Assembly: GCA_965202805.1 (NCBI GenBank)
Contig: OZ241869.1
Span: 3,264,001 to 3,328,000, forward strand
Source: Longimicrobiales bacterium
Lineage (GTDB): Bacteria; Gemmatimonadota; Gemmatimonadetes; Longimicrobiales; Gaopeijiaceae
Length of the DNA stretch: 64,000 nt
Direction of reading: 5' to 3'
Part shown: positions 11,237 through 21,927 of the stretch, one piece after another
Position numbering within the stretch: the stretch's first letter is position 1
Layout: each line of letters opens with the position of its first letter
The notes under the pieces: model-generated
The model's database searches: none
Seen by the model: only the letters and a program-made list of their open reading frames with translations
What the model was told of the DNA's origin: nothing
Made by a program: the position numbers and the translations under genes

Positions 11237-11971
11237 TTACGTCAGCCTTCGCGCGATCCACACCGTGCGGAAGACGGCGGTCGCCACCGTGCCCGCTGCG
11301 GTCACCACCAGCACCGCCAGCAGGACCGTGCCCGGGTCGCGCCCCAGCAGCGCGGAGCCGGTGCCGTCCAAGATCGCGCCGAACCCGATCAGCAGGAGCC
11401 GCTCCGCGCGTTGCATGACGCCCGCCGTGCACAGAACGCCCTGACTCTCGCCGCGCGCGCGTGTGTAGCTGACCAGTAGCGAACCCCCGAGCGCCGCGGC
11501 CACCACCGCGAGAGCGGCGCCGGAGTCCCGAAACGCCACCGCCAGCCCCACGAATGCGGCTACCTCGGCGAACCGGTCGATGGTCGAGTCCAGGAACGCC
11601 CCGCGCGGCGAGGCCAGCCCGCGCGCCCGAGCGATCCGTCCGTCCATGGCATCCGCGACGCCGCTGAGCAGCACCGCCCAGCCGGCCGTGGCGAACCGCC
11701 CCGAAGCGAAGAGCCAGCCCGCCACCGCGCCGAAGGCGAACCCGAGCAGGTTGTAGAAGAGGGGAGACAGCCCGAGGCGGAGCGACGCCCGCTCGACGGG
11801 CCACACAAACCAGTAGAACCAGCGGCGCACGAAGGAGCCGAGCACGAACTTGCCCCGGGTGGACGACTCGAGCGCATCCACCGCGCGGCTCGCCGCACTC
11901 AGCGCGAAGATCGGCATGGTGGCGAGCGCGAACCCCACGACCACGACCAGCGCCGTAAGCTCCGGCCTCAT
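11237..11971 (-). CDS. CDP-alcohol phosphatidyltransferase family protein
   Basis: Signature DAMDGRIAR...GAFLDSTIDR; VSYTRARGE and RAER motifs as in PgsA/PIP-synthase-like proteins; hydrophobic. Confidence 0.9.
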   Translation of the reverse strand: MRPELTALVVVVGFALATMPIFALSAASRAVDALESSTRGKFVLGSFVRRWFYWFVWPVERASLRLGLSPLFYNLLGFAFGAVAGWLFASGRFATAGWAVLLSGVADAMDGRIARARGLASPRGAFLDSTIDRFAEVAAFVGLAVAFRDSGAALAVVAAALGGSLLVSYTRARGESQGVLCTAGVMQRAERLLLIGFGAILDGTGSALLGRDPGTVLLAVLVVTAAGTVATAVFRTVWIARRLT

Positions 11972-12987
11972 GGTGTCCCGGCTTCCCGCGCTCGGGCCGC
12001 CTGCCGCCCCCGGCCGTCCCGCGATGCCCGGTTCTCCGGCGGTTCCCGGTTCTCGGGCGATTCCGCGCGTCCGGAGCGCAACACGCGAAACGCCTTGGGA
12101 AGCAGAAGCGGGAAGGGGAAACGCCGCTCCAGAGGCGTGATCTCCACCGTCATCCCGGTGCGCCGTTCCACCTTGCGCACGATGTAGGGGAACCAGCGGT
12201 CGAACGTGAGCATGTGCTTGACCCAGCGGGTGGTGGCGCGCGCCTTGCTGATGCCGAAGTACGCGTTCAGCCTGAGCTGGGCCGCGGCCGACGCGGGATG
12301 AGTTGCCCGGTACTCCCCCTTCGATCGCTCGAGCACGCCGGACGCCACCCCGGCCTCCAGGATGGGGGTGTAGATGCCTCGCAGCATCTCCCGCTGGGCC
12401 TCGTAGACGGCGCTCACCCGGCCTCCGCGTTCCGGCCGGATCTCCCCGGCGTACGAGATCTCCAGCATGCGCCGGCAGAAGTCGTCCACGGAAAACGAGC
12501 CCTCCAGGAACGGAAGGGTCCAATCGAGGACCATCCGCCTCGCGCCGGCGACCAGTTCCTCGACCCATGCGGCCGTCTCCGGGTCGCGCGCATGCACGAC
12601 CGAGATGTGATGCGCGATCCGGCCCAGGCAGAAATGGTCGAGGCGGCGCGGCCCCAGTTCCCGCTCGAAGTCGGCGCGCGAAAGCACGAGACACTTGGCC
12701 AGCGGCCCATCCGGCGGCGCGGGCCAGAAGGCGATGACGGTCGGAGCCAGCACGCGGCTGACGGTCGCCAGCAACCCCGCGTTGCGCGCCGTGTACCCGC
12801 TGTCGGACAGGGCGCGGTAGAACGCCCGGTAGTCTTCGACCACGACGACCAGGTCGTAGGCGCTGTGCCGGTCCGGGCTTGCCGACACAAGCCGCGAGCC
12901 GTACGCCAGCACGGCAAGCAGGCCGTCGCCGCCGGTCTCCCGCAGCCTGGAGACCAGGTGCCCGATGGGTGCCTCCACTCCCGTCAT
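11968..12987 (-). CDS. Putative Tam41/Mmp37-like nucleotidyltransferase (phosphatidate cytidylyltransferase-like)
   Basis: Nucleotidyltransferase motif LAYGS...YDLVVVV; later GR and ISYAGEIR-E resemble Tam41 GRL and SYxGD(F/I)R; ATGA-coupled to both neighbours. Confidence 0.6.
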   Translation of the reverse strand: MTGVEAPIGHLVSRLRETGGDGLLAVLAYGSRLVSASPDRHSAYDLVVVVEDYRAFYRALSDSGYTARNAGLLATVSRVLAPTVIAFWPAPPDGPLAKCLVLSRADFERELGPRRLDHFCLGRIAHHISVVHARDPETAAWVEELVAGARRMVLDWTLPFLEGSFSVDDFCRRMLEISYAGEIRPERGGRVSAVYEAQREMLRGIYTPILEAGVASGVLERSKGEYRATHPASAAAQLRLNAYFGISKARATTRWVKHMLTFDRWFPYIVRKVERRTGMTVEITPLERRFPFPLLLPKAFRVLRSGRAESPENREPPENRASRDGRGRQAARAREAGTP

Positions 12988-13754
12988 GCGGGCTCCGCCG
13001 CCGTGGGGGCGCCCCGCATTTCGTCGAGCATTCCGGTCATGACGCCCCGCATCTCCATGATGAACCCATCCAGATCGGCATCCGCCGCCGGCGACTCGAA
13101 GGGTCCCCGGCACTCGACGCGGGTGCGCATCCGCGGTAGGTTTCCGAAGAAGTCCTTGAGTCGCGTCCACTTCCACAGCCCGTCCGCCACCACGACGTAC
13201 ACGCTCCAGCGGCGTGCCGCCAGAATGGTCGTCAGCCCCAGCGTCTTGAAGGGGCCGATGCGACCCGTCCTGCTCCGGGTTCCCTCCGGGTAGATGATGA
13301 GGGGGTGCGTGGAGGCGGCCGCTTTCCTGCGAAGCCGCTTCAGCTCACCGCGCAGGGTTGCTCTCGCATCTACCAAGGGGTATCGGTACAGCCTTGTCAT
13401 GTGGGATATTAGGGGCACGCCGCGGGCGTACCGCCGGCGCGTCACGATGCGGGGGTAGGTGCCTTGCATCGACGCGACGACGAGCGGGATGTCGAGGAGC
13501 GACTGGTGGTTCATGAGCACCAGCACGCCGGGGGTTGCCGGGATGTCCGGCAACTCGCCGAAACGGACTCCGCCCATATGGCGAAGGAAAAAGATGACCA
13601 CGTGGGCCGTGAAGCGCTGCCACTCGGTGAGCAGGGCGTCGCGGTTCCCCGGCAGCAGTCGCGCCATGGGCGCGATCAGGAGGCGCTGAATCAGATCGCA
13701 GGCCAGTAGCGCCGCGCCGAGCGCGGTGAGAGTCAAGGCTCCGCGGAGGTCCAA
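12984..13754 (-). CDS. Lysophospholipid acyltransferase (PlsC family)
   Basis: NHQSLLD (HX4D) and IYPEGTRS motifs. Start TTG 13754 or ATG 13808. Confidence 0.9.
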   Translation of the reverse strand: MDLRGALTLTALGAALLACDLIQRLLIAPMARLLPGNRDALLTEWQRFTAHVVIFFLRHMGGVRFGELPDIPATPGVLVLMNHQSLLDIPLVVASMQGTYPRIVTRRRYARGVPLISHMTRLYRYPLVDARATLRGELKRLRRKAAASTHPLIIYPEGTRSRTGRIGPFKTLGLTTILAARRWSVYVVVADGLWKWTRLKDFFGNLPRMRTRVECRGPFESPAADADLDGFIMEMRGVMTGMLDEMRGAPTAAEPA

Positions 13755-13808
13755 TGACGTGTCCTGAGAGGCGGGTGTGGTCCGATCGGAAGAACATCGG
13801 GCAAACAT

Positions 13809-15218
13809 ATGAGTGACATGCGAAACGCTAGCAGGAAATCCGCTTCGGCGTCAACGCGGCAGACGGCCGCCGACGGGGCCGGGGATGCCGTTGCCGCCGA
13901 GTCCGACGGGAGGATGACCGTCGCCCCGGCGCGCCCCGCACCGGGGGATGAGCGACCGCCGCTGCGCGGACTGAGCGACTACGACTACACCAACTTCTAC
14001 TTCGCGGCGGGCACGGATCCGTTCGGAATCCTCGGGCCTTTCGGCGAATGGTGGAAGGACGCCGAGTTCGTCGGAGGCTACTACCTCTACGGGTTGCCCA
14101 TGGGCTCCGCGCCCGCCACGCGGGTCCGGATCGGCGATCCCAAGACCCGCGAGACGCTCGAGGGTCTGATCAACTTCGCGTCCTACAACTACCTCGGTCT
14201 TTCCTACCGCCCCGAAGTGATCGAGGCGATCTGCGACGCGGTTCGCAAGTACGGTGCAGGGGCCTCGGGATCGCCGGTGCTGTCGGGCACCATGGACCTT
14301 CACAAGCGCCTGGCGACGGAGATGGCCGCCTTCAAGGGAAAGGACGGGGCCCTCATCTTCCCGACCGGATACAGCGCCAACGTGGGGCTCATCTCGGGGC
14401 TCATGCGCCCCGGCGATCTGATCGTCGCCGACAAGCTCGCCCACGCGAGCATCGTCGACGGCATGATTCTGTCGAAGGCGACCTCACGCTTCTTCAAGCA
14501 CAACAACCCCGAGGATCTCGACCGCAAGCTGCGCGGGTTCAAGGGCAAGAAGCTGGTGGTCGTCGAAGGCGTCTACTCGATGGACGGCGACGTGGCCAGG
14601 CTGCCCGAAATCGTCGAGGTCTGTCGCAGGCACGGTGCGCGCCTTCTCATCGACGAGGCGCATTCCACCTTCGTCTACGGCCCCAACGGGCGAGGCGTCG
14701 CGGAGCACTTCGGACTGGACGACGAGGTCGACATCCACCTGGGCACGTTCTCGAAGAGCCTTGGAGGCCTGGGCGGATTCGTCGCGGGCTCGGCGGAACT
14801 CATCTACTACCTGCGCGGCTTCGCGCGTTCGCGGGTGTTCTCGTGCGCGCTTCCGCCTCCGGTTACGGCCGGGTTGCTGAAGGCGCTCGAAATCGCAAGA
14901 GCGGAGCCGGAGCTGCGTGACAGGCTGTGGGACAACGCCCGCTACATGCACGGTATCCTGGGCGAGGCGGGCGTGGACGTGGGCGACTCCACCTCCCAGG
15001 TGATCTCGATCATGATCCGCGACGACGCCGGGATCTTCCAGATCGCCGAGGATCTGCTGCACGAGGGCGTCTACATCAACCCCGTCCGCTTTCCCGCGGT
15101 GGGCAAGCACAAGTCCCGCTTCCGCATGTCGATCTCGGCGGCGCACACCCGGTCCGAACTGGAGGAAGGCGCCGAGATCATCATCTCCATCCTCAAGAAA
15201 TACGGAAAATGCCCCTGA
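13809..15218 (+). CDS. PLP-dependent alpha-oxoamine synthase, serine palmitoyltransferase-like
   Basis: NFASYNYLGL, HASIVDG, EGVYSMDGD, DEAH and GTFSKS motifs. GTFSKS is the SPT-type PLP-lysine motif; BioF/KBL usually have T(L/F)GKA. Start uncertain (13809, 13818 or 13914). Confidence 0.8.
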   Translation: MSDMRNASRKSASASTRQTAADGAGDAVAAESDGRMTVAPARPAPGDERPPLRGLSDYDYTNFYFAAGTDPFGILGPFGEWWKDAEFVGGYYLYGLPMGSAPATRVRIGDPKTRETLEGLINFASYNYLGLSYRPEVIEAICDAVRKYGAGASGSPVLSGTMDLHKRLATEMAAFKGKDGALIFPTGYSANVGLISGLMRPGDLIVADKLAHASIVDGMILSKATSRFFKHNNPEDLDRKLRGFKGKKLVVVEGVYSMDGDVARLPEIVEVCRRHGARLLIDEAHSTFVYGPNGRGVAEHFGLDDEVDIHLGTFSKSLGGLGGFVAGSAELIYYLRGFARSRVFSCALPPPVTAGLLKALEIARAEPELRDRLWDNARYMHGILGEAGVDVGDSTSQVISIMIRDDAGIFQIAEDLLHEGVYINPVRFPAVGKHKSRFRMSISAAHTRSELEEGAEIIISILKKYGKCP

Positions 15219-15871
15219 CCCGGTATCATTATTCCCAGGCCGTCAGCGCCTTCTTCGAAATCGCCACCTCCGATGCCCGCCGCATCCTTCCCCCGCACCT
15301 GCAGCCGCTCGAAGTGCAGCACGAGGCCAGCATCCTCGCCGTCACGGCCTTCGACTTCACCGGCAGCATGGTCGGTACCTATCAGGAGATCGTGCTCTCG
15401 GTGATCGTCCCGCCCCTGATGACCCCGGGCCAGGGCATGGCGAAATCGGCCTTCTATCCCTTCCTCGTGGGGACGAGCACGGAGGCGTCGCGCGAGCACG
15501 CGATCGAGCGCTGGCACCTTCCGCACTACATGAAGGACCTCGACATCCGCTTCCTGCCTTCGGACGGGCGCATGCGCGTGGAGGTGCGCGAGGGCGATAG
15601 GCCGATCCTGGACTTCGAGGTGGCGGACCACCATTCGGCGCCGGTCGATCACCTGTACCAGTCGTTCATGATCAACGGCGATGACCGCTTCAAGGTGGAC
15701 ATCCACATGCGGGGGCCGCACAGCGAGCACGAGGAGGAAGCCGGGTCGCTGAAGCTCCACGAGCATCCCATGACCTCCCAGTTGACGCTGGACCTGGTGG
15801 CCACCTGTCCGTTCCGCGAGCAGTGGATGACGAACGGGGTCCAGGTTTTCGAGGAGCTGGAGCGCATCTGA
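15209..15871 (+). CDS. Acetoacetate decarboxylase-like fold protein
   Basis: ARRILPPHLQP, AFDF...VGTYQE and HAIERWHLPH align by eye with the ADC-family pattern (..LP..L.P, GxYxE, GREIWGxPK); overlaps the SPT-like stop. Confidence 0.65.
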   Translation: MPLTRYHYSQAVSAFFEIATSDARRILPPHLQPLEVQHEASILAVTAFDFTGSMVGTYQEIVLSVIVPPLMTPGQGMAKSAFYPFLVGTSTEASREHAIERWHLPHYMKDLDIRFLPSDGRMRVEVREGDRPILDFEVADHHSAPVDHLYQSFMINGDDRFKVDIHMRGPHSEHEEEAGSLKLHEHPMTSQLTLDLVATCPFREQWMTNGVQVFEELERI

Positions 15872-16830
15872 GCGGCGGAGCGCGCACCTTCGTCATCTTC
15901 AACCCGGCTTCCGGGCACGGGCGGGGCGCGCGCCGGATCCCCCTCTACCGCGGGCTGCTCGACAAGCACTTCGATTCCTGGGAGTGGGCGTCGACCACGG
16001 CGCCGGGCGAGGAAGCCGAACTCGCGGGCCGGGCCATCGCCGGCGGAGCGAAGCTGATCGTGGCCGTGGGCGGCGACGGCACCTGGAGCCAGGTGGCCGA
16101 CCGGATGGTGGCATCCGGGCGCCCGGATGTGGTGCTGGGACTGCTGGCCTCGGGAACCGGCAACGACTTCGCCAGGAGCCTCGGGCTCAGCTACGGCGAC
16201 CCGGAGCAGGCGGTGGCGGCGCTGGCGGCGGGCCGGACCCGCCGCATCGATGTGGGGCGGGTGGTGTCGGAGTGGCGTCCGGCGCCCTACCCGGAGGTGG
16301 CATCCGACGCAGCCTGGCGCAATGCCCCGCGCCACTTCCTGAACCTGGTGGGTTTCGGCTTCGACATCGCCGTCATCGACGCCAGCCTGAGGGCGCGCTT
16401 CCTGCGGGGGGCGGTGCTGTACAAGCTCACGGCGCTGCAGCAGTTGTTCCTGTACCGGAGTCCGCGGCTGCGCCTGTCGGACGGCGGTGGATGGAGCACC
16501 GACGGGCGGCACCTCATCCTCACCATTTCGAACGGACGCATCTTCGGCGGCGGATTCCCGATCGCCCCGGATGCCGATCTGCAGGATGGGCGTCTGGACG
16601 CGTGCGCGATCGCCGATTCCTCGCCGCTGGGACGCGCGCGCCTGTTCAGCCTGGCGGAGAAGGGCCGCCACCTGGGCGCGAAGGAGGTCTCCATGCGCCA
16701 GGATCGCGCTTTTGCCGTGCGGTTCGACGAGCGAGTACGTTACGAGGTCGACGGCGACGTGCATCAGTCGCGCACGGGCGAGGTGCGCGTGGATGTCGTC
16801 CCCTCGGCGCTCTCGGTGATCGTGCCGTGA
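15868..16830 (+). CDS. Diacylglycerol/sphingosine kinase family lipid kinase (YegS/DgkB-like)
   Basis: [32 protein letters not shown] and DGD motifs. Start uncertain (CTG 15868 overlapping the upstream stop, or 15823). Confidence 0.9.
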
Positions 16831-16840
16831 AGGAGGCTGG

Positions 16841-19800
16841 ATGGATCGCCTTGCTGCCGCCCCGCCGCGTACCGCGCAGCCCATCCGGGTAGTCACGGCG
16901 GCGTCGCTCTTCGACGGACACGACGCTGCAATCAACGTGATGCGCCGGATCCTCCAGGATTCGGGCGCGGAAGTCATCCACCTGGGGCACAACCGCTCCG
17001 CCCTCGAGATCGTCGAGTGTGCGATCCAGGAGGACGCGCACGCCATCGCGATCAGCTCGTATCAGGGCGGGCACATGGAGTTCTTCACCTACGTGCGCGA
17101 CCTGCTGCGCGAGCGGGGCGCGGAGATCCGCATCTTCGGGGGCGGGGGCGGGACCATTCTGCCCGCGGAGGCCGAGGAGCTGCACCGGCGCGGCATCGAC
17201 CGGGTGTTCTCTCCCGACGACGGGCGGGCGATGGGCCTGCAGGGGATGATCGACGAAGTGCTGGAGGGTGCACGTCGCTCGGTCCGATCGTCGCTCGCGG
17301 ATCCGGAGGCCGAGGTTCGGGCGCTCCGCCAGGGAGACGCGGGAGCGGTGGCGCGCCTGATCTCGGCGGTCGAGAACGGCCACGCGGGCGCGGACGACGC
17401 GATGGAGGTCGTGGCGGAGATGGCGGCGGTCCGGCGGGTGCCGGTGCTGGGCATCACGGGCACGGGCGGCTCGGGCAAGTCGTCGCTGGTGGACGAGCTG
17501 GTGCGGCGCTATCTGTCCGGCACCGCCGACGGCCGGGTCGCGATCATCTCGGTGGATCCGTCCAGGCGCCGCACCGGGGGCGCGCTGCTGGGCGACCGCA
17601 TCCGCGTCAACGCCGCGAGCAGCCCCCGCGTCTACATGCGCTCGCTGGCCACCCGCGCCTCCACGGTCGGGCTGTCGCCGCACGCGCGCCAGGCAGTGGA
17701 GATCTGCAAGGCCGCCGGCCACGACCTGGTCATCATCGAGACGCCCGGGATCGGTCAGTTCGGCGCCGAGGTGGTGGGGCACTCGGATGTGTCGCTGTAC
17801 GTGATGACGGCCGAGTACGGCGCCGCCAGCCAGCTCGAGAAGATCGACATGCTGGACTACGCGGACGTGGTCGCCATCAACAAGTTCGACCGCCCGGGGG
17901 CGCTCGATGCGCTCCGCGACGTGCGCAAGCAGTACCGGCGCAACCACCGCCTGTGGAGCGTCCCCGACGAGGCGCTCCCGGTGTACGGGACCGTGGCTTC
18001 ACGCTTCAACGACGCGGGCGTCAACCGCCTGTACCTGGCGCTCCTCGACCAGTTGCGGCGCACGACCGGCGCGCCCCTCGCTACCGAAAGCGACCCGATC
18101 GACGACGACCGTGCCGAGCACACGCCGATTCCCCCGGAACGCACCCGCTACCTGGCGGAGATCGTGGAGGCGGGCCGCGACTACGACCGCGGCGCCGAGG
18201 AGCAGGCGGCCCTGGCCGGCCAGCTCTACCAGCTGCACGGAGCGATCCGACTGCTGCGGGAGGGGGAAGAGAGCGTCGGCATGGCGGCTCCGGCCTCGCC
18301 CCCGCGCGGCACCGCGGGCGAGGCCGCGCCCGCCGGCGCGCCCGCCACATCCGGCGGCCGGCCGGAAGAGATCGCACCCGAATTGCACGCCGCGGCCAGC
18401 GAGGGCGAACCGCTCGCCCGGCTGGTCGACCTCTACCGGCAGACGCGCGCGCGGCTCGACGAACGCAGCCTGGCCCTGCTCGAGGAATGGCCGGCCGTTA
18501 CGCGCCGCTACCGGGCCGACACCTACGCCTACCAGGTGCGTGGCCGCGAGGTGGAGCGGAACCTCTTCAGCGAATCGCTCGCGGGCTCGCGCATCCCGCG
18601 AGTGGTGCTGCCCCGCTTCAGGGACTGGGGCGAGGTGCTGCGCTGGCGCCTCACCGAGAACGTCCCCGGCGCGTTTCCCTACACTGCCGCGGTCTTCCCC
18701 CTGAGGCGGCTGGAGGAGCATCCGCAGCGCATGTTCGCGGGCGAGGGCGGCCCCGAGCGCACCAACCGGCGCTTCCACTTCCTCAGCCGGGCCAGCATGG
18801 CCAACCGCCTCTCGACCGCCTTCGACTCGGTGACGCTCTACGGCGAAGATCCGGACGAGCGCATGGACATCTACGGGAAGGTCGGCAACTCCGGTGTGAG
18901 CGTGGCCTCGGTCGACGACGCCAAGAAGCTCTACTCCGGCTTCAACCTGGCCGACCCGTCCACCAGCGTGTCGATGACCATCAACGGGCCCGCGCCCATG
19001 CTGCTCGGCTTCTTCCTGAACGCCGCCATCGACCAGCAGTGCGAGCTGCACATCCGCGAAAACGGGCTCGACGCCGAGGTCGAGGAGCGCATCGACGCGC
19101 TCTATCGCGAGCGCGGAATGGAGCGGCCCCGCTACCAGGGCGCGCTTCCGGAGGGGAACGACGGTCTCGGCCTGATGCTGCTCGGCGTGAGCGGCGACGA
19201 GGTAATCCCGCGCGAGGTCTACGAGCGCATCCGCCGCGAAACCCTGGCCGTGGTCAGAGGCACCGTGCAGGCCGACATCCTCAAGGAGGACCAGGCCCAG
19301 AACACCTGCATCTTCTCCATCGAGCTGGCGCTCCGCCTGATGGGGGACATCCAGCAGTACTTCATCGACGAAGGGGTGCGGAACTTCTATTCGGTGTCCA
19401 TCTCCGGATACCACATCGCGGAGGCCGGCGCCAACCCCGTCACCCAGCTCGCGCTCACGCTCGCCAACGGCTTCACCTACGTCGAGTACTACCGCTCGCG
19501 CGGGATGCGCGTCGACGACTTCGCGCCCAACCTGTCGTTCTTCTTCTCCAACGGCATGGACCCGGAATACGTGGTGCTGGGTCGGGTCGCGCGCCGCATC
19601 TGGGCGAAGGCGATGAGGCACGTATACGGCGCAAACGCCCGCTCGCAGAGGCTCAAGTACCACATCCAGACCTCGGGACGCAGCCTGCACGCGCAGGAGA
19701 TCGCCTTCAACGACATCCGCACCACGCTGCAGGCCCTCTACGCGCTGTGCGACAACTGCAACTCGCTGCACACCAACGCCTACGACGAGGCCATCACCAC

Positions 19801-20356
19801 CCCCACCGAGGAGAGCGTGCGCCGGGCCCTGGCGATTCAGCTGGTCATCAGCAGGGAGCTGGGGCTTTCGCGCAACGAGAACCCTCTGCAGGGCTCGTTC
19901 ATCATCGAGGAGCTGACGGACCTGGTGGAGGAAGCGGTGATGCGCGAATTCCTGCGGCTCTCGGAGCGCGGAGGCGTGCTCGGGGCCATGGAGCGCATGT
20001 ACCAGCGGGGCCGCATCCAGGACGAGTCGCTCGAGTACGAGTCGCGCAAGCACAGCGGGGAGCTGCCCATCGTGGGGGTGAACACCTTCCTGGGGCCGGA
20101 GGGATCGCCCACGCGGGTGCCCGAGGAGGTGATCCGCGCCAACCGCGAGGAGAAGGACTACGCCATCGCGTCGAACAGGGCATTCAGGGCGCGCAACCAG
20201 GGCCGCGCGGAAGCCGTGCTCGGGGAGCTGAGGCGGGTGGCGCTGGCAGGCGGCAACACCTTCGTCGCGCTCATGGAGGCGTGCAAGGTGTGCACGCTGG
20301 GGCAGATCACGTCGGTGCTCTACGAGGTGGGGGGGCAGTACCGGAGGAACATGTAG
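16841..20356 (+). CDS. icmF: Fused isobutyryl-CoA mutase / MeaB-like GTPase (B12-dependent)
   Basis: N-terminal B12-binding [16 protein letters not shown]; GTPase [12 protein letters not shown] and NKFD; mutase [19 protein letters not shown] and HIQTSGRSL; ends GGQYRRNM. Confidence 0.95.
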
Positions 20357-21331: not shown

Positions 21332-21610
21332 ATGATACGAAGCTTCAAGGACCGCAGAACGAGGCGTTTCTTCGAGGGGCAGCGTATCCCGGCGTTTCAC
21401 GGGTTCTCCGATCAGGCCGTACGGCGGCTGACTCTGCTGGACAGCGCGGAGACGCTGGGCGACCTTGCCGCGCTGCCGAGCAACCGGTTGGAGGTACTCC
21501 GGGGCGACCGTGTCGGGCAGCACAGCATTCGGATCAACACGCAGTGGCGTATCTGCTTCCGCTGGACCGACCAAGGGCCGAGCGAGGTCGAGATCGTGGA
21601 CTATCACTGA
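21332..21610 (+). CDS. higB: HigB-type (RelE/ParE family) toxin
   Basis: MIRSFKD...PSNRLEVLRGDRVGQHSIRINTQWRICFRW...VEIVDYH. Confidence 0.93.
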   Translation: MIRSFKDRRTRRFFEGQRIPAFHGFSDQAVRRLTLLDSAETLGDLAALPSNRLEVLRGDRVGQHSIRINTQWRICFRWTDQGPSEVEIVDYH

Positions 21611-21621
21611 GGGAGCTTGGC

Positions 21622-21927
21622 ATGAATGCGAAGAACGGCATGAGGCCGGTGCATCCGGGCGAAATCCTGCGTGAGGAACTCCACGAACTCGGATTGTCGG
21701 CCAATGCGTTGTCGAAGGCGCTTGGTGTGCCGGTCAACCGGGTGACGATGATTCTGAACGGCCAGCGGGGCGTGACCGCCGACACGGCGTTGCGGCTGGC
21801 GAGGTATTTCGGGACGACTCCGCAACTCTGGTTGAATCTGCAGAAAACCTGGGAGCTTCGCCGAACGGAGATCGAGGCGGGTCACAAGATCGCCGAGCAG
21901 GTCACGCCCCGGCACGCGGTCGTCTAG
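21622..21927 (+). CDS. higA: HigA family antitoxin (HTH_XRE)
   Basis: MRPVHPGEILREE...GVTADTALRLARYFGTTPQLWLNLQ. Confidence 0.93.
   Translation: MNAKNGMRPVHPGEILREELHELGLSANALSKALGVPVNRVTMILNGQRGVTADTALRLARYFGTTPQLWLNLQKTWELRRTEIEAGHKIAEQVTPRHAVV

Follow-up and report, generated by a model that had tools for sequence, protein, structure and literature searches.

A divergent six-gene cluster of Gemmatimonadota as a candidate route to an inositol-phosphate lipid without bCerS and CerR

The Caulobacter/Rhodobacteria locus contains spt together with the genes of the kinase CpgB (CC_1160), CpgC (CC_1161) and CpgA (CC_1159) (PMC11324152, PMC12275187). CC_1161 has a Tam41 domain and is required for ceramide phosphoglycerate (PMC11324152), and the mechanism of CpgC has been termed unidentified (PMC12275187). 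Bacteroides thetaiotaomicron has the MIPS BT_1526, the PIPS BT_1523 and the AUR1-like PI-DHC synthase BT_1522; PI is first built on DAG, after which the AUR1-like enzyme transfers its head group to ceramide (PMC9246714). SgaB of Pseudomonas is a non-canonical alpha-oxoamine synthase (AOS) with SPT activity outside the usual spt-bCerS-cerR setting (PMC12134224). Surveys of bacterial sphingolipid producers depend on Spt, bCerS and CerR. One survey drops those AOS homologues that lie beyond its Spt-like clade, and considers it possible that non-homologous enzymes act as replacements (PMC11334938).

The window, a stretch of 64,000 nucleotides from a Longimicrobiales bacterium, contains six ORFs in two divergent groups. 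They had been reported in a sequence-only reading, and all six are present and intact.

11237..11971, minus strand: CDP-alcohol phosphotransferase, PIPS type, 244 aa (PF01066, 44.1 bits)
11968..12987, minus strand: putative Tam41-fold cytidylyltransferase, 339 aa (PF09139, 19.7 bits, cut-off 24; AlphaFold/Foldseek)
12984..13754, minus strand: PlsC/LPLAT-family acyltransferase, 256 aa (PF01553, 48.7 bits)
13755..13913, no strand: presumed bidirectional promoter region, 159 bp between the divergent groups (start-codon survey and sequence)
13914..15218, plus strand: PLP-dependent AOS, 434 aa (PF00155; GTFSKS present)
15209..15871, plus strand: acetoacetate-decarboxylase (ADC)-fold protein, 220 aa (PF06314, 25.2 bits, cut-off 29.8; fold)
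15868 (CTG) or 15823 (GTG)..16830, plus strand: DAGK/YegS/sphingosine-kinase-family lipid kinase (PF00781, PF19279)

The leftward genes overlap by ATGA at 12984-12987 and 11968-11971, also as reported, and TTG at 13754 is the likely start codon of the plsC-type gene. For the AOS, the start given before, 13809, is replaced by 13914, which has a GGGAGG ribosome site; 13809 is disfavoured because it lies directly against the longest plsC ORF, with no room for a promoter. CTG at 15868 is the more likely start of the kinase. The whole stretch lies within one contig of one sequencing run with no indel listed, and this run may be the source of the DNA. Some contigs from RNA libraries of relatives (share of words 0.05-0.08) span parts of the genes, which cannot show transcription.

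Most of the phylum uses the canonical spt-bCerS-cerR-(AUR1-like) operon. We give about an even chance to the reading that this cluster takes its place and leads, without bCerS or CerR, to an inositol-phosphate lipid with a sphingoid-type backbone, and we infer all steps of this route from gene content, folds, motifs and co-occurrence. The AOS would join a long-chain acyl thioester and serine into a 3-ketosphinganine-type aminoketone, which would be bound or processed by the ADC-fold partner. The PlsC-type enzyme would add the second chain, here as an amide, and the kinase would phosphorylate C1. The Tam41/CpgC-type enzyme would then make the CDP-lipid, and the PIPS-type enzyme would move it onto inositol-1-phosphate supplied by Ino1. 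The 3-keto group would be retained, or reduced by an unlinked enzyme; the cluster itself contains no reductase, which speaks against this route. Of the complete phospho-sphingolipid pathway proposed from the sequence, the resemblance of the kinase/Tam41/CDP-transferase trio to the Caulobacter-type locus is supported, but the route cannot be called complete, since no ketoreductase could be assigned.

All six genes occur in 35 of the 80 loci that were collected via the ADC-fold gene. The divergent order is kept in 67 of the 68 related loci holding the CDP-alcohol phosphotransferase, Tam41, PlsC and ADC genes, which is far beyond chance. Genomes labelled Krumholzibacteria and Eiseniibacteriota share the co-conserved neighbourhood with Gemmatimonadota, in support of the sequence-only reading. 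Where the AOS gene is missing from the cluster, it sits elsewhere beside a second ADC-fold copy (30/30 displaced loci fetched). An AOS orthologue (at least 59% identity) and the ADC-fold gene are found in the identical 13 of 151 phylum genomes, which favours one route, although such counts are not independent because the genomes are related. Four longer ‘AOS-ADC(-kinase) fusions’ looked like frameshifted read-throughs and were dismissed as fusions. Against one route, the modules are separable: G122 and G150 carry AOS-ADC-kinase without Tam41/PIPS, and G162 carries Tam41-PIPS without AOS/ADC.

The absence of bCerS and CerR from the cluster was confirmed, and the genome-wide search gave a divided answer. 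At a distance of 46 kb from the cluster there is an orphan bCerS homologue (G000:C1:3228508-3229638). It is 72% identical to the bCerS of a canonical operon and 34% identical to YghO of E. coli BL21, which we take to be a bCerS. CerR was not found in this genome with two queries: the E. coli candidate gave a best E of 1e-6, and the phylum CerR query gave none at 1e-35 and matched 4/4 controls. Another SDR could act in place of CerR. An ordinary ceramide, with the divergent AOS as SPT, N-acylation by the orphan bCerS, reduction by an unlinked SDR and a third, O-linked chain from PlsC, would fit the presence of the bCerS homologue here and in 11 of the 15 genomes of the genus. We consider it very unlikely, since no bCerS turned up in 10 of the 13 cluster genomes sampled, among them the single-contig G002, G007 and G009 (96-100% completeness), in 30 of 66 further ones, or in any of the eight cluster genomes of a second phylum. 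The bCerS-independent route is also favoured by the distribution of the other canonical genes. A CerR-like gene is present in 13 of 76 non-control genomes (75 of them with the cluster), in none of the 15 of the genus and in all four controls. The pair of canonical-type SPT (E <=1e-75) and bCerS occurs in 0/13 AOS/ADC genomes versus 89/138 others, and AUR1-like PAP2 in 2/24 cluster genomes versus 10/10 with the canonical operon. The cluster and the canonical spt-bCerS-cerR operon are thus nearly mutually exclusive; the exclusivity is not absolute, because some cluster genomes have other spt-cerR-bCerS loci. In addition, 39 of the 138 non-cluster genomes have neither system, which weakens the idea of a replacement.

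H177, D247, H250, K281 and R404 of the AOS are conserved in aligned relatives; with regard to SPT membership, the catalytic residues and the GTFSKS-type PLP-lysine motif are present, and the top solved-structure match is an SPT (3A2B, 294 bits). On the other side, the AOS is under every NCBIfam SPT cut-off (365.5/640, 347.5/500 and 279.3/670). Canonical SPTs of Gemmatimonadota are also below the CFB cut-off, yet they reach 502-547. The scores against SPT, BioF and Kbl-related models are near-equal (365.5, 365.2 and 366.4 bits, all under cut-off), and in place of the GSR and F(S/T)AS/AA of SPT-locus enzymes the AOS carries GSP and FSCAL. In the careful tree, made from 60 of the 205 aligned rows and leaving out ALAS, CqsA, SgaB and the Sphingomonas, Sphingobacterium and Caulobacter SPTs, the AOS forms its own clade with FAAL-ACP-AOS fusions (support 100/98), outside the bacterial SPT clade (100/99). 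A 99/96 branch parts it from BioF/KBL, whose model cut-offs are also missed, and a sister relation of the AOS and SPT clades was not rejected (AU p 0.36). PKS-linked AOS sequences are a weakly supported sister group (81/90), and four sister-group rows are presumably ‘eukaryotic LCB2-like’, a label given from their motifs. The earlier assignment as an SPT-like enzyme thus stands in so far as the AOS does not group with BioF/KBL, but it is not a member of the clade of known bacterial SPTs and stays below all SPT cut-offs. Serine is therefore a candidate substrate: the AOS is proposed to condense a long-chain acyl group with an amino acid, most likely serine. In its nearest outside relatives (52-56% identity) the AOS is joined to a fatty acyl-AMP ligase and an ACP, which counts in favour of the sphingoid-type route. 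Scanning metagenomes with the FAAL-ACP-AOS fusion recovered FAAL loci for the most part, with ADC-fold or Tam41 matches in 0/80. The top plasmid matches of the AOS were prodigiosin-type PigH loci and were set apart as a separate clade in the tree. The other AOS of the same genome is KBL-like.

The ADC-fold protein was modelled with a pLDDT of 94 and aligned to 3BH2 with a VIA Z of 22.1 (rmsd 2.6, 199 aligned). The ADC fold and the Glu76 equivalent are present, with E60 at this position invariant in 104/104 sequences. In the register that fits the secondary structure, the equivalent of the Schiff-base Lys115 is H106 (H 89, Y 13, C 2, K 0; rank 2/192), whereas the MAFFT register places K79 there (K in 91/104; rank 85/192). 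When the family was compared by hhalign with the ADC of C. acetobutylicum as a single sequence, the alignment was confined to the Glu76 region. The protein therefore probably lacks the Schiff-base Lys and keeps the catalytic Glu, and so a carrier or an acid-base isomerase is likelier than decarboxylation. For the pair of AOS and ADC-fold protein, complex prediction scored 0.20 (mark 0.32), which speaks neither for nor against a complex.

Acyl-alkanediol phosphoinositols are known from Thermomicrobia. A similar product on a non-sphingoid, glycerol-free backbone would arise if the AOS used serine or glycine and its aminoketone were rearranged or deaminated by the ADC-fold protein, giving a hydroxy or diol backbone, PlsC O-acylated it, and the kinase, Tam41 and PIPS enzymes added phosphoinositol. 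Such a pathway would account for the invariant Glu, the tight AOS-ADC pairing in displaced loci and in the same 13 genomes, the acyltransferase of PlsC rather than GNAT type, and the missing CerR with a divergent AOS. We think it unlikely: the literature matches listed hold no precedent for this ADC-fold chemistry, a reduction step is still required, CpgC-type enzymes are otherwise found in sphingolipid loci, and ADC-family matches on plasmid records were zero.

The cluster kinase is the sole DAGK in the genome, scores above the TIGR00147 cut-off (124.2 bits versus 118.65) and conserves GGDGT and GTGNDF; it is proposed to be a 1-O-kinase, although its similarity to the Roseomonas CpgB-position kinase is weak (E 3.8e-6). 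The AlphaFold model of the Tam41-like protein (pLDDT 87) has 7ECD as its top Foldseek match (E 2e-9), followed by 6IG4/6IG2. The Pfam Tam41 family search was uninformative, since it gave zero matches even for controls. In support of the sphingoid-type route, hhalign relates this protein to Roseomonas WP_019463181.1 of an acp-spt-DAGK-CDP-APT locus (probability 99.75, 29% identity); the comparison with CpgC was made through such CpgC-position genes. We propose that the enzyme converts the lipid-1-phosphate to the CDP-lipid. The CDP-alcohol transferase missed the cut-offs of its best NCBIfam models, AIPS (121 bits, cut-off 180) and PIPS (94.8 bits, cut-off 170). The five solved structures that match it best are all PI/PIP synthases, the CDP-AP signature is present, and D107, D110, G111, D128, D132 and SY-RARGE are conserved in 62 aligned sequences. 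The genome has no second PIPS-like gene. PIPS homologues adjoin ino1 in non-cluster relatives, and the eight cluster genomes of the family to which this genome belongs have the cluster copy only, which fits the proposed function. ino1 is present in this genome, but it does not discriminate, as it is found in 142 of 151 phylum genomes. We propose that the transferase acts on inositol-1-phosphate, and inositol phosphate is the most likely head group.

H83-x4-D88 and PEG-R of the PlsC-type enzyme, which has one N-terminal hydrophobic helix, are conserved in 58 aligned sequences. The PlsC family is known for O-acylation and is not known for established N-acylation, which speaks against an amide; the enzyme is proposed to acylate the AOS product at N or O. 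A second, separate PlsC is encoded elsewhere in the genome, as are CdsA, PgsA-like and PssA-like proteins, and the cluster is therefore not needed for bulk glycerophospholipids.

These four families would also suit two co-regulated but separate modules, in which PlsC, kinase, Tam41 and PIPS form a glycerol PIP line (lyso-PA or DAG to PA, CDP-DAG and PIP) and the AOS and ADC-fold protein make an unrelated aminoketone metabolite. Each family has precisely that textbook activity, the ino1-linked PIPS is replaced by the cluster PIPS in this bacterial family, the AOS is physically apart in 37/80 loci, and the modules occur singly in G122, G150 and G162. We nevertheless hold this to be quite improbable. 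CDP-DAG is already supplied by CdsA and the other PlsC, the kinase accompanies AOS-ADC in 11/30 displaced loci, PlsC-Tam41-PIPS genes whose AOS has moved elsewhere keep an ADC-fold copy beside them, and Tam41 is found in 11/13 AOS genomes versus 1/138 others. The exclusion of spt-cerR-AUR1 would also be left unexplained.

The cluster supplies concrete candidates for replacement in lineages mostly without the canonical operon, and suggests a separately assembled route to sphingolipid-like inositol lipids in uncultured Gemmatimonadota and related bacteria. It is possible, at somewhat less than even chances, that it represents an independent inositol-phosphate amino-lipid or glycerol-free lipid route of a class undescribed in bacteria. 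Such a route would combine a new AOS clade, probably lysine-free ADC-fold chemistry on a long-chain aminoketone, a PlsC-family ceramide synthase or diol acyltransferase and direct Tam41-fold CDP activation. As a compact, expressible six-gene system it bears on three questions: possible CDP-ceramide formation by CpgC/Tam41-type enzymes, the capacity of the PlsC family for ceramide synthesis, and the role of an ADC-fold protein that accompanies an AOS.

Among known systems, the ADC-like superfamily (ADC, MppR, Sbi00515, Swit_4259) shares the fold (Z 19-22) and the conserved Glu76 equivalent with the cluster protein, but identity is 10-15%, and the cluster protein probably has His for Lys and is paired with a lipid AOS. 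SgaB is a precedent for SPT activity in an atypical AOS, and PKS-linked AOSs form the weak sister group in a tree without SgaB; unlike that system, the cluster has no PKS, and its closest AOS relatives are FAAL-ACP-AOS fusions. The B. thetaiotaomicron route, which resembles the canonical Gemmatimonadota gene set, also uses Ino1 and a PIPS-type enzyme, and an inositol-phospho-ceramide-like product is predicted here. However, AUR1-like genes were mostly not found in the cluster genomes, for which we predict a direct kinase-CDP route instead. The Caulobacter/Rhodobacteria locus likewise has an AOS adjoining a DAGK-family kinase, a Tam41-domain protein and a CDP-alcohol transferase. In contrast to that locus, the cluster has no aasR, acpR, cerR or cerS, its AOS belongs to another clade, its transferase is of PIPS type, and PlsC and ADC-fold genes are added.

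The six open reading frames of the cluster lie where the sequence-only reading had placed them, with slightly corrected starts, and the family assignments by Pfam and NCBIfam agree.

Genes of the cluster (window positions, direction, assignment)
13754-12984, leftward: PlsC-type acyltransferase, Pfam/NCBIfam family match
12987-11968, leftward: Tam41-like protein, family match under the cut-off, confirmed by fold
11971-11237, leftward: CDP-alcohol transferase, Pfam/NCBIfam family match
13914-15218, rightward: alpha-oxoamine synthase (AOS), Pfam/NCBIfam family match
15209-15871, rightward: acetoacetate-decarboxylase-fold (ADC-fold) protein, family match under the cut-off, confirmed by fold
ending at 16830, rightward: DAGK-family kinase, Pfam/NCBIfam family match

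ATGA overlaps join the three leftward genes. For the kinase, the probable start is a CTG that overlaps the ADC stop codon (CTGA, 15868-15871) and is preceded by a GGAG site; in several relatives, the stretch from this point to the conserved first strand contains no ATG, GTG or TTG. A fused B12-binding/MeaB/methylmalonyl-CoA-mutase gene (16841-20356) follows 10 bp past the kinase and is probably unrelated to the cluster, because it adjoins the cluster only in close relatives. Two small genes at 21332-21927 resemble a toxin-antitoxin pair, presumably of the HigB/HigA type. Elsewhere in the genome, a gene for a 2401-aa polyketide synthase-like protein lies next to a reductase-like gene (G000:C1:1478185-1485390).

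A scan of a genome collection with the ADC alignment gave 221 relatives, and the best 80 were analysed, some of which run off contig edges; the titles of related loci assign them to Gemmatimonadota, mostly Longimicrobiales. The neighbourhood proved to be conserved: all six genes occur in 35 of these best 80 of 221 loci, with Tam41 in 74, PlsC in 73, the CDP-alcohol transferase in 70, the kinase in 66 and AOS in 43, and the divergent order is kept in 67 of the 68 that hold the four testable genes. Among the 53 more distant of these 80 loci (ADC 56-66% identical), 12 have all six genes and 23 lack only AOS. An AOS orthologue of 65-70% identity (frameshifted in three cases) is found elsewhere in 31 of 32 genomes with an AOS-less locus, and a second ADC-fold copy lies directly downstream in all 30 displaced loci fetched, 11 of which also have the kinase. 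Many relatives have two ADC-fold paralogues, one with plsC-tam41-pips (pips, the phosphatidylinositol-phosphate synthase gene) and one that has moved with AOS (loci L111-L140, L022 and L024), hinting at two roles. The modules also occur apart in genomes G122, G150 and G162. Two separate modules, one for ordinary PI(P) and the other for something else, are a doubtful alternative to a single route. No further neighbour conserved across lineages was found beside the cluster loci. Downstream of the kinase in 23-24 of 57 distant loci (L060-L103) are genes for an unknown protein, a winged-helix regulator and an undecaprenyl-diphosphate-synthase-like protein; genes for a thioesterase (in 16) and a phosphopantetheinyl transferase (in 12) are frequent nearby in the same 57.

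AOS retains the PLP-binding and catalytic residues in the alignment. Its best solved relative is the serine palmitoyltransferase (SPT) 3A2B with 294 bits, compared with 198 for BioF and 232 for the top entry that carries the KBL name alone; no NCBIfam model passed for AOS. In an IQ-TREE phylogeny of 60 rows picked from 205, a 99/96 branch separates AOS from BioF/KBL, in line with the sequence-only reading. The SPT-like identity that it had also assigned did not hold as clade membership, since AOS falls outside the 100/99 clade of E. coli, Roseomonas, Prevotella and canonical Gemmatimonadota SPTs. Cluster AOS and two FAAL-ACP-AOS fusion proteins (52-56% identity) form one clade (100/98), the sister group of which includes PKS-linked AOS sequences (81/90, unstarred); forcing AOS together with the SPT clade was not rejected (AU p 0.36). 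From its position outside both SPT and BioF/KBL, AOS is, as judged by sequence, a separate AOS lineage. It likely uses long acyl chains, and serine is the inferred substrate because a C1 hydroxyl is needed downstream and AOS has an SPT-like motif. Excerpts of one report describe SgaB, an AOS that has SPT activity even though its setting is not the canonical one (PMC12134224). A lipid backbone free of both nitrogen and glycerol is one rival reading, and we regard it as unlikely.

The phylum sample comprised 151 genomes at least 90% complete, our own and 150 others. The ADC-fold gene is present in 13, and AOS orthologues (at least 59% identity) in those same 13; 11 of them have Tam41, as does one of the other 138. 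A 39-49% identical AOS and a bCerS homologue occur together in 89 of these 138 and are both missing from 39; no cluster genome among the 13 has the pair. The E. coli BL21 query proteins are recorded as YghO and an epimerase/dehydratase, to which we apply the names bCerS and CerR; BL21 has an spt locus. Of 14 AOS-bCerS loci fetched, 13 were spt-bCerS-cerR operons or similar groups and one (L187) was bio-like; six further regions were cluster or orphan-bCerS loci. A PAP2_3 (AUR1-like) gene follows several of the spt-bCerS-cerR loci, and AUR1-like genes occur in all 10 canonical genomes, in 2 of 24 with the cluster and in none of three with neither system. All 4 controls have a CerR-like gene, as do 13 of the 76 non-control genomes; it was found in none of the 15 genomes of the own genus. 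bCerS of any kind is present in 36 of 66 cluster genomes, and the phylum type (at least 45%) in only three outside the own genus among these 66. Of 12 genomes in a second phylum, eight have the ADC-fold gene, all of them without bCerS; the other four lack both systems. Because the surveyed genomes are kin, these counts should be read as a pattern rather than as a statistical test. As exceptions to the exclusion, some cluster genomes hold other spt-cerR-bCerS loci; of the extra spt loci (L147, L149, L150 and L151), one is of proteobacterial type, one is PKS-linked, and two have genes for CerR, an ACP and a ketosynthase.

The bCerS search of the remaining genome that the sequence-only reading had proposed gave a divided result: one homologue lies about 46 kb from the cluster, outside the window (G000:C1:3228508-3229638, L144), and neither spt nor cerR adjoins it. 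It shares 72% identity with the bCerS from a canonical operon of another family. Eleven of the 15 genomes in the genus carry it, and three of the four in which it was not found are single-contig. It resembles a remnant or an acquired gene, and the cluster can persist without it. Canonical N-acylation through this orphan is the reading we consider least probable.

The ADC fold is unambiguous in comparison of the predicted model (Z 22.1), and Glu60, the equivalent of catalytic Glu76, is invariant. The Schiff-base lysine position most plausibly corresponds to His106, because this gapless register agrees with the strand-helix pattern of the prediction (rank 2 of 192); position 106 is never Lys in 104 sequences. 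The automatic alignment instead places it at the well-conserved Lys79 (rank 85 of 192). Its constant pairing with AOS suggests that the ADC-fold protein may act on or carry the AOS product. The predicted model of the Tam41-like protein best matches bacterial and yeast Tam41, and its profile matches, with 99.75% probability, a Roseomonas gene of an acp-spt locus that adjoins a kinase and a CDP-transferase. The protein also matched 14 plasmid records, all from Roseomonas or Pseudomonas. The nearest kin of the CDP-alcohol transferase are PIP synthases. Of the 151 genomes, 146 have homologues, which adjoin ino1 in the non-cluster genomes compared by eye (e.g. G145, G192, G125 and G164); in the eight cluster genomes of the own family, the cluster copy is the sole homologue of this type. 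Our genome has ino1, and also separate CdsA, PgsA-like, PssA-like and PlsC genes. The PIP-synthase kinship, the ino1 adjacency in relatives and ino1 in our genome make inositol phosphate the best-supported candidate for the head group.

Most Gemmatimonadota have the canonical operon, in many cases accompanied by an AUR1-like PAP2 gene, and PIPS-ino1 elsewhere (L168-L181, e.g. G164:C3:2632801-2636949), a gene content from which inositol phospho-dihydroceramide is predicted throughout the phylum. In the cluster lineages this set is mostly missing, and AOS, ADC-fold, PlsC, kinase, CpgC-type and PIPS-type genes are present instead. In the simplest reading, to which we give an even chance, the cluster would take the place of the canonical set and lead directly to a similar lipid. 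The main gap is a reductase, absent from this proposed route. A zinc-dependent alcohol dehydrogenase gene after AOS-ADC-kinase in two Gemmatimonadota genomes (L183:5057-6325 and L185:5762-6982) is a candidate ketoreductase there, and is not present downstream of the kinase in our cluster.

The best-ranked literature results included no paper on the six-gene combination or on Gemmatimonadota sphingolipid genes. From the cultured Gaopeijia maritima, a major aminolipid without an assigned identity is reported in PMC11651109. The cluster is compact and testable, a candidate for making either an inositol sphingolipid independently of bCerS or a lipid of a new class. Excerpts of PMC11334938 state that bCerS and CerR may have non-homologous substitutes in some phyla. 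Every part of the cluster belongs to a known family. The canonical gene set of Gemmatimonadota is also that of Bacteroides, in which it yields inositol phospho-dihydroceramide (part of PMC9246714). The Caulobacter locus parallels half of the cluster route: CC_1161/CpgC, the mechanism of which is unidentified according to a passage of PMC12275187, contains a Tam41 domain and is needed to make ceramide phosphoglycerate; the authors suggest NDP-activated ceramide as its product (excerpts of PMC11324152).
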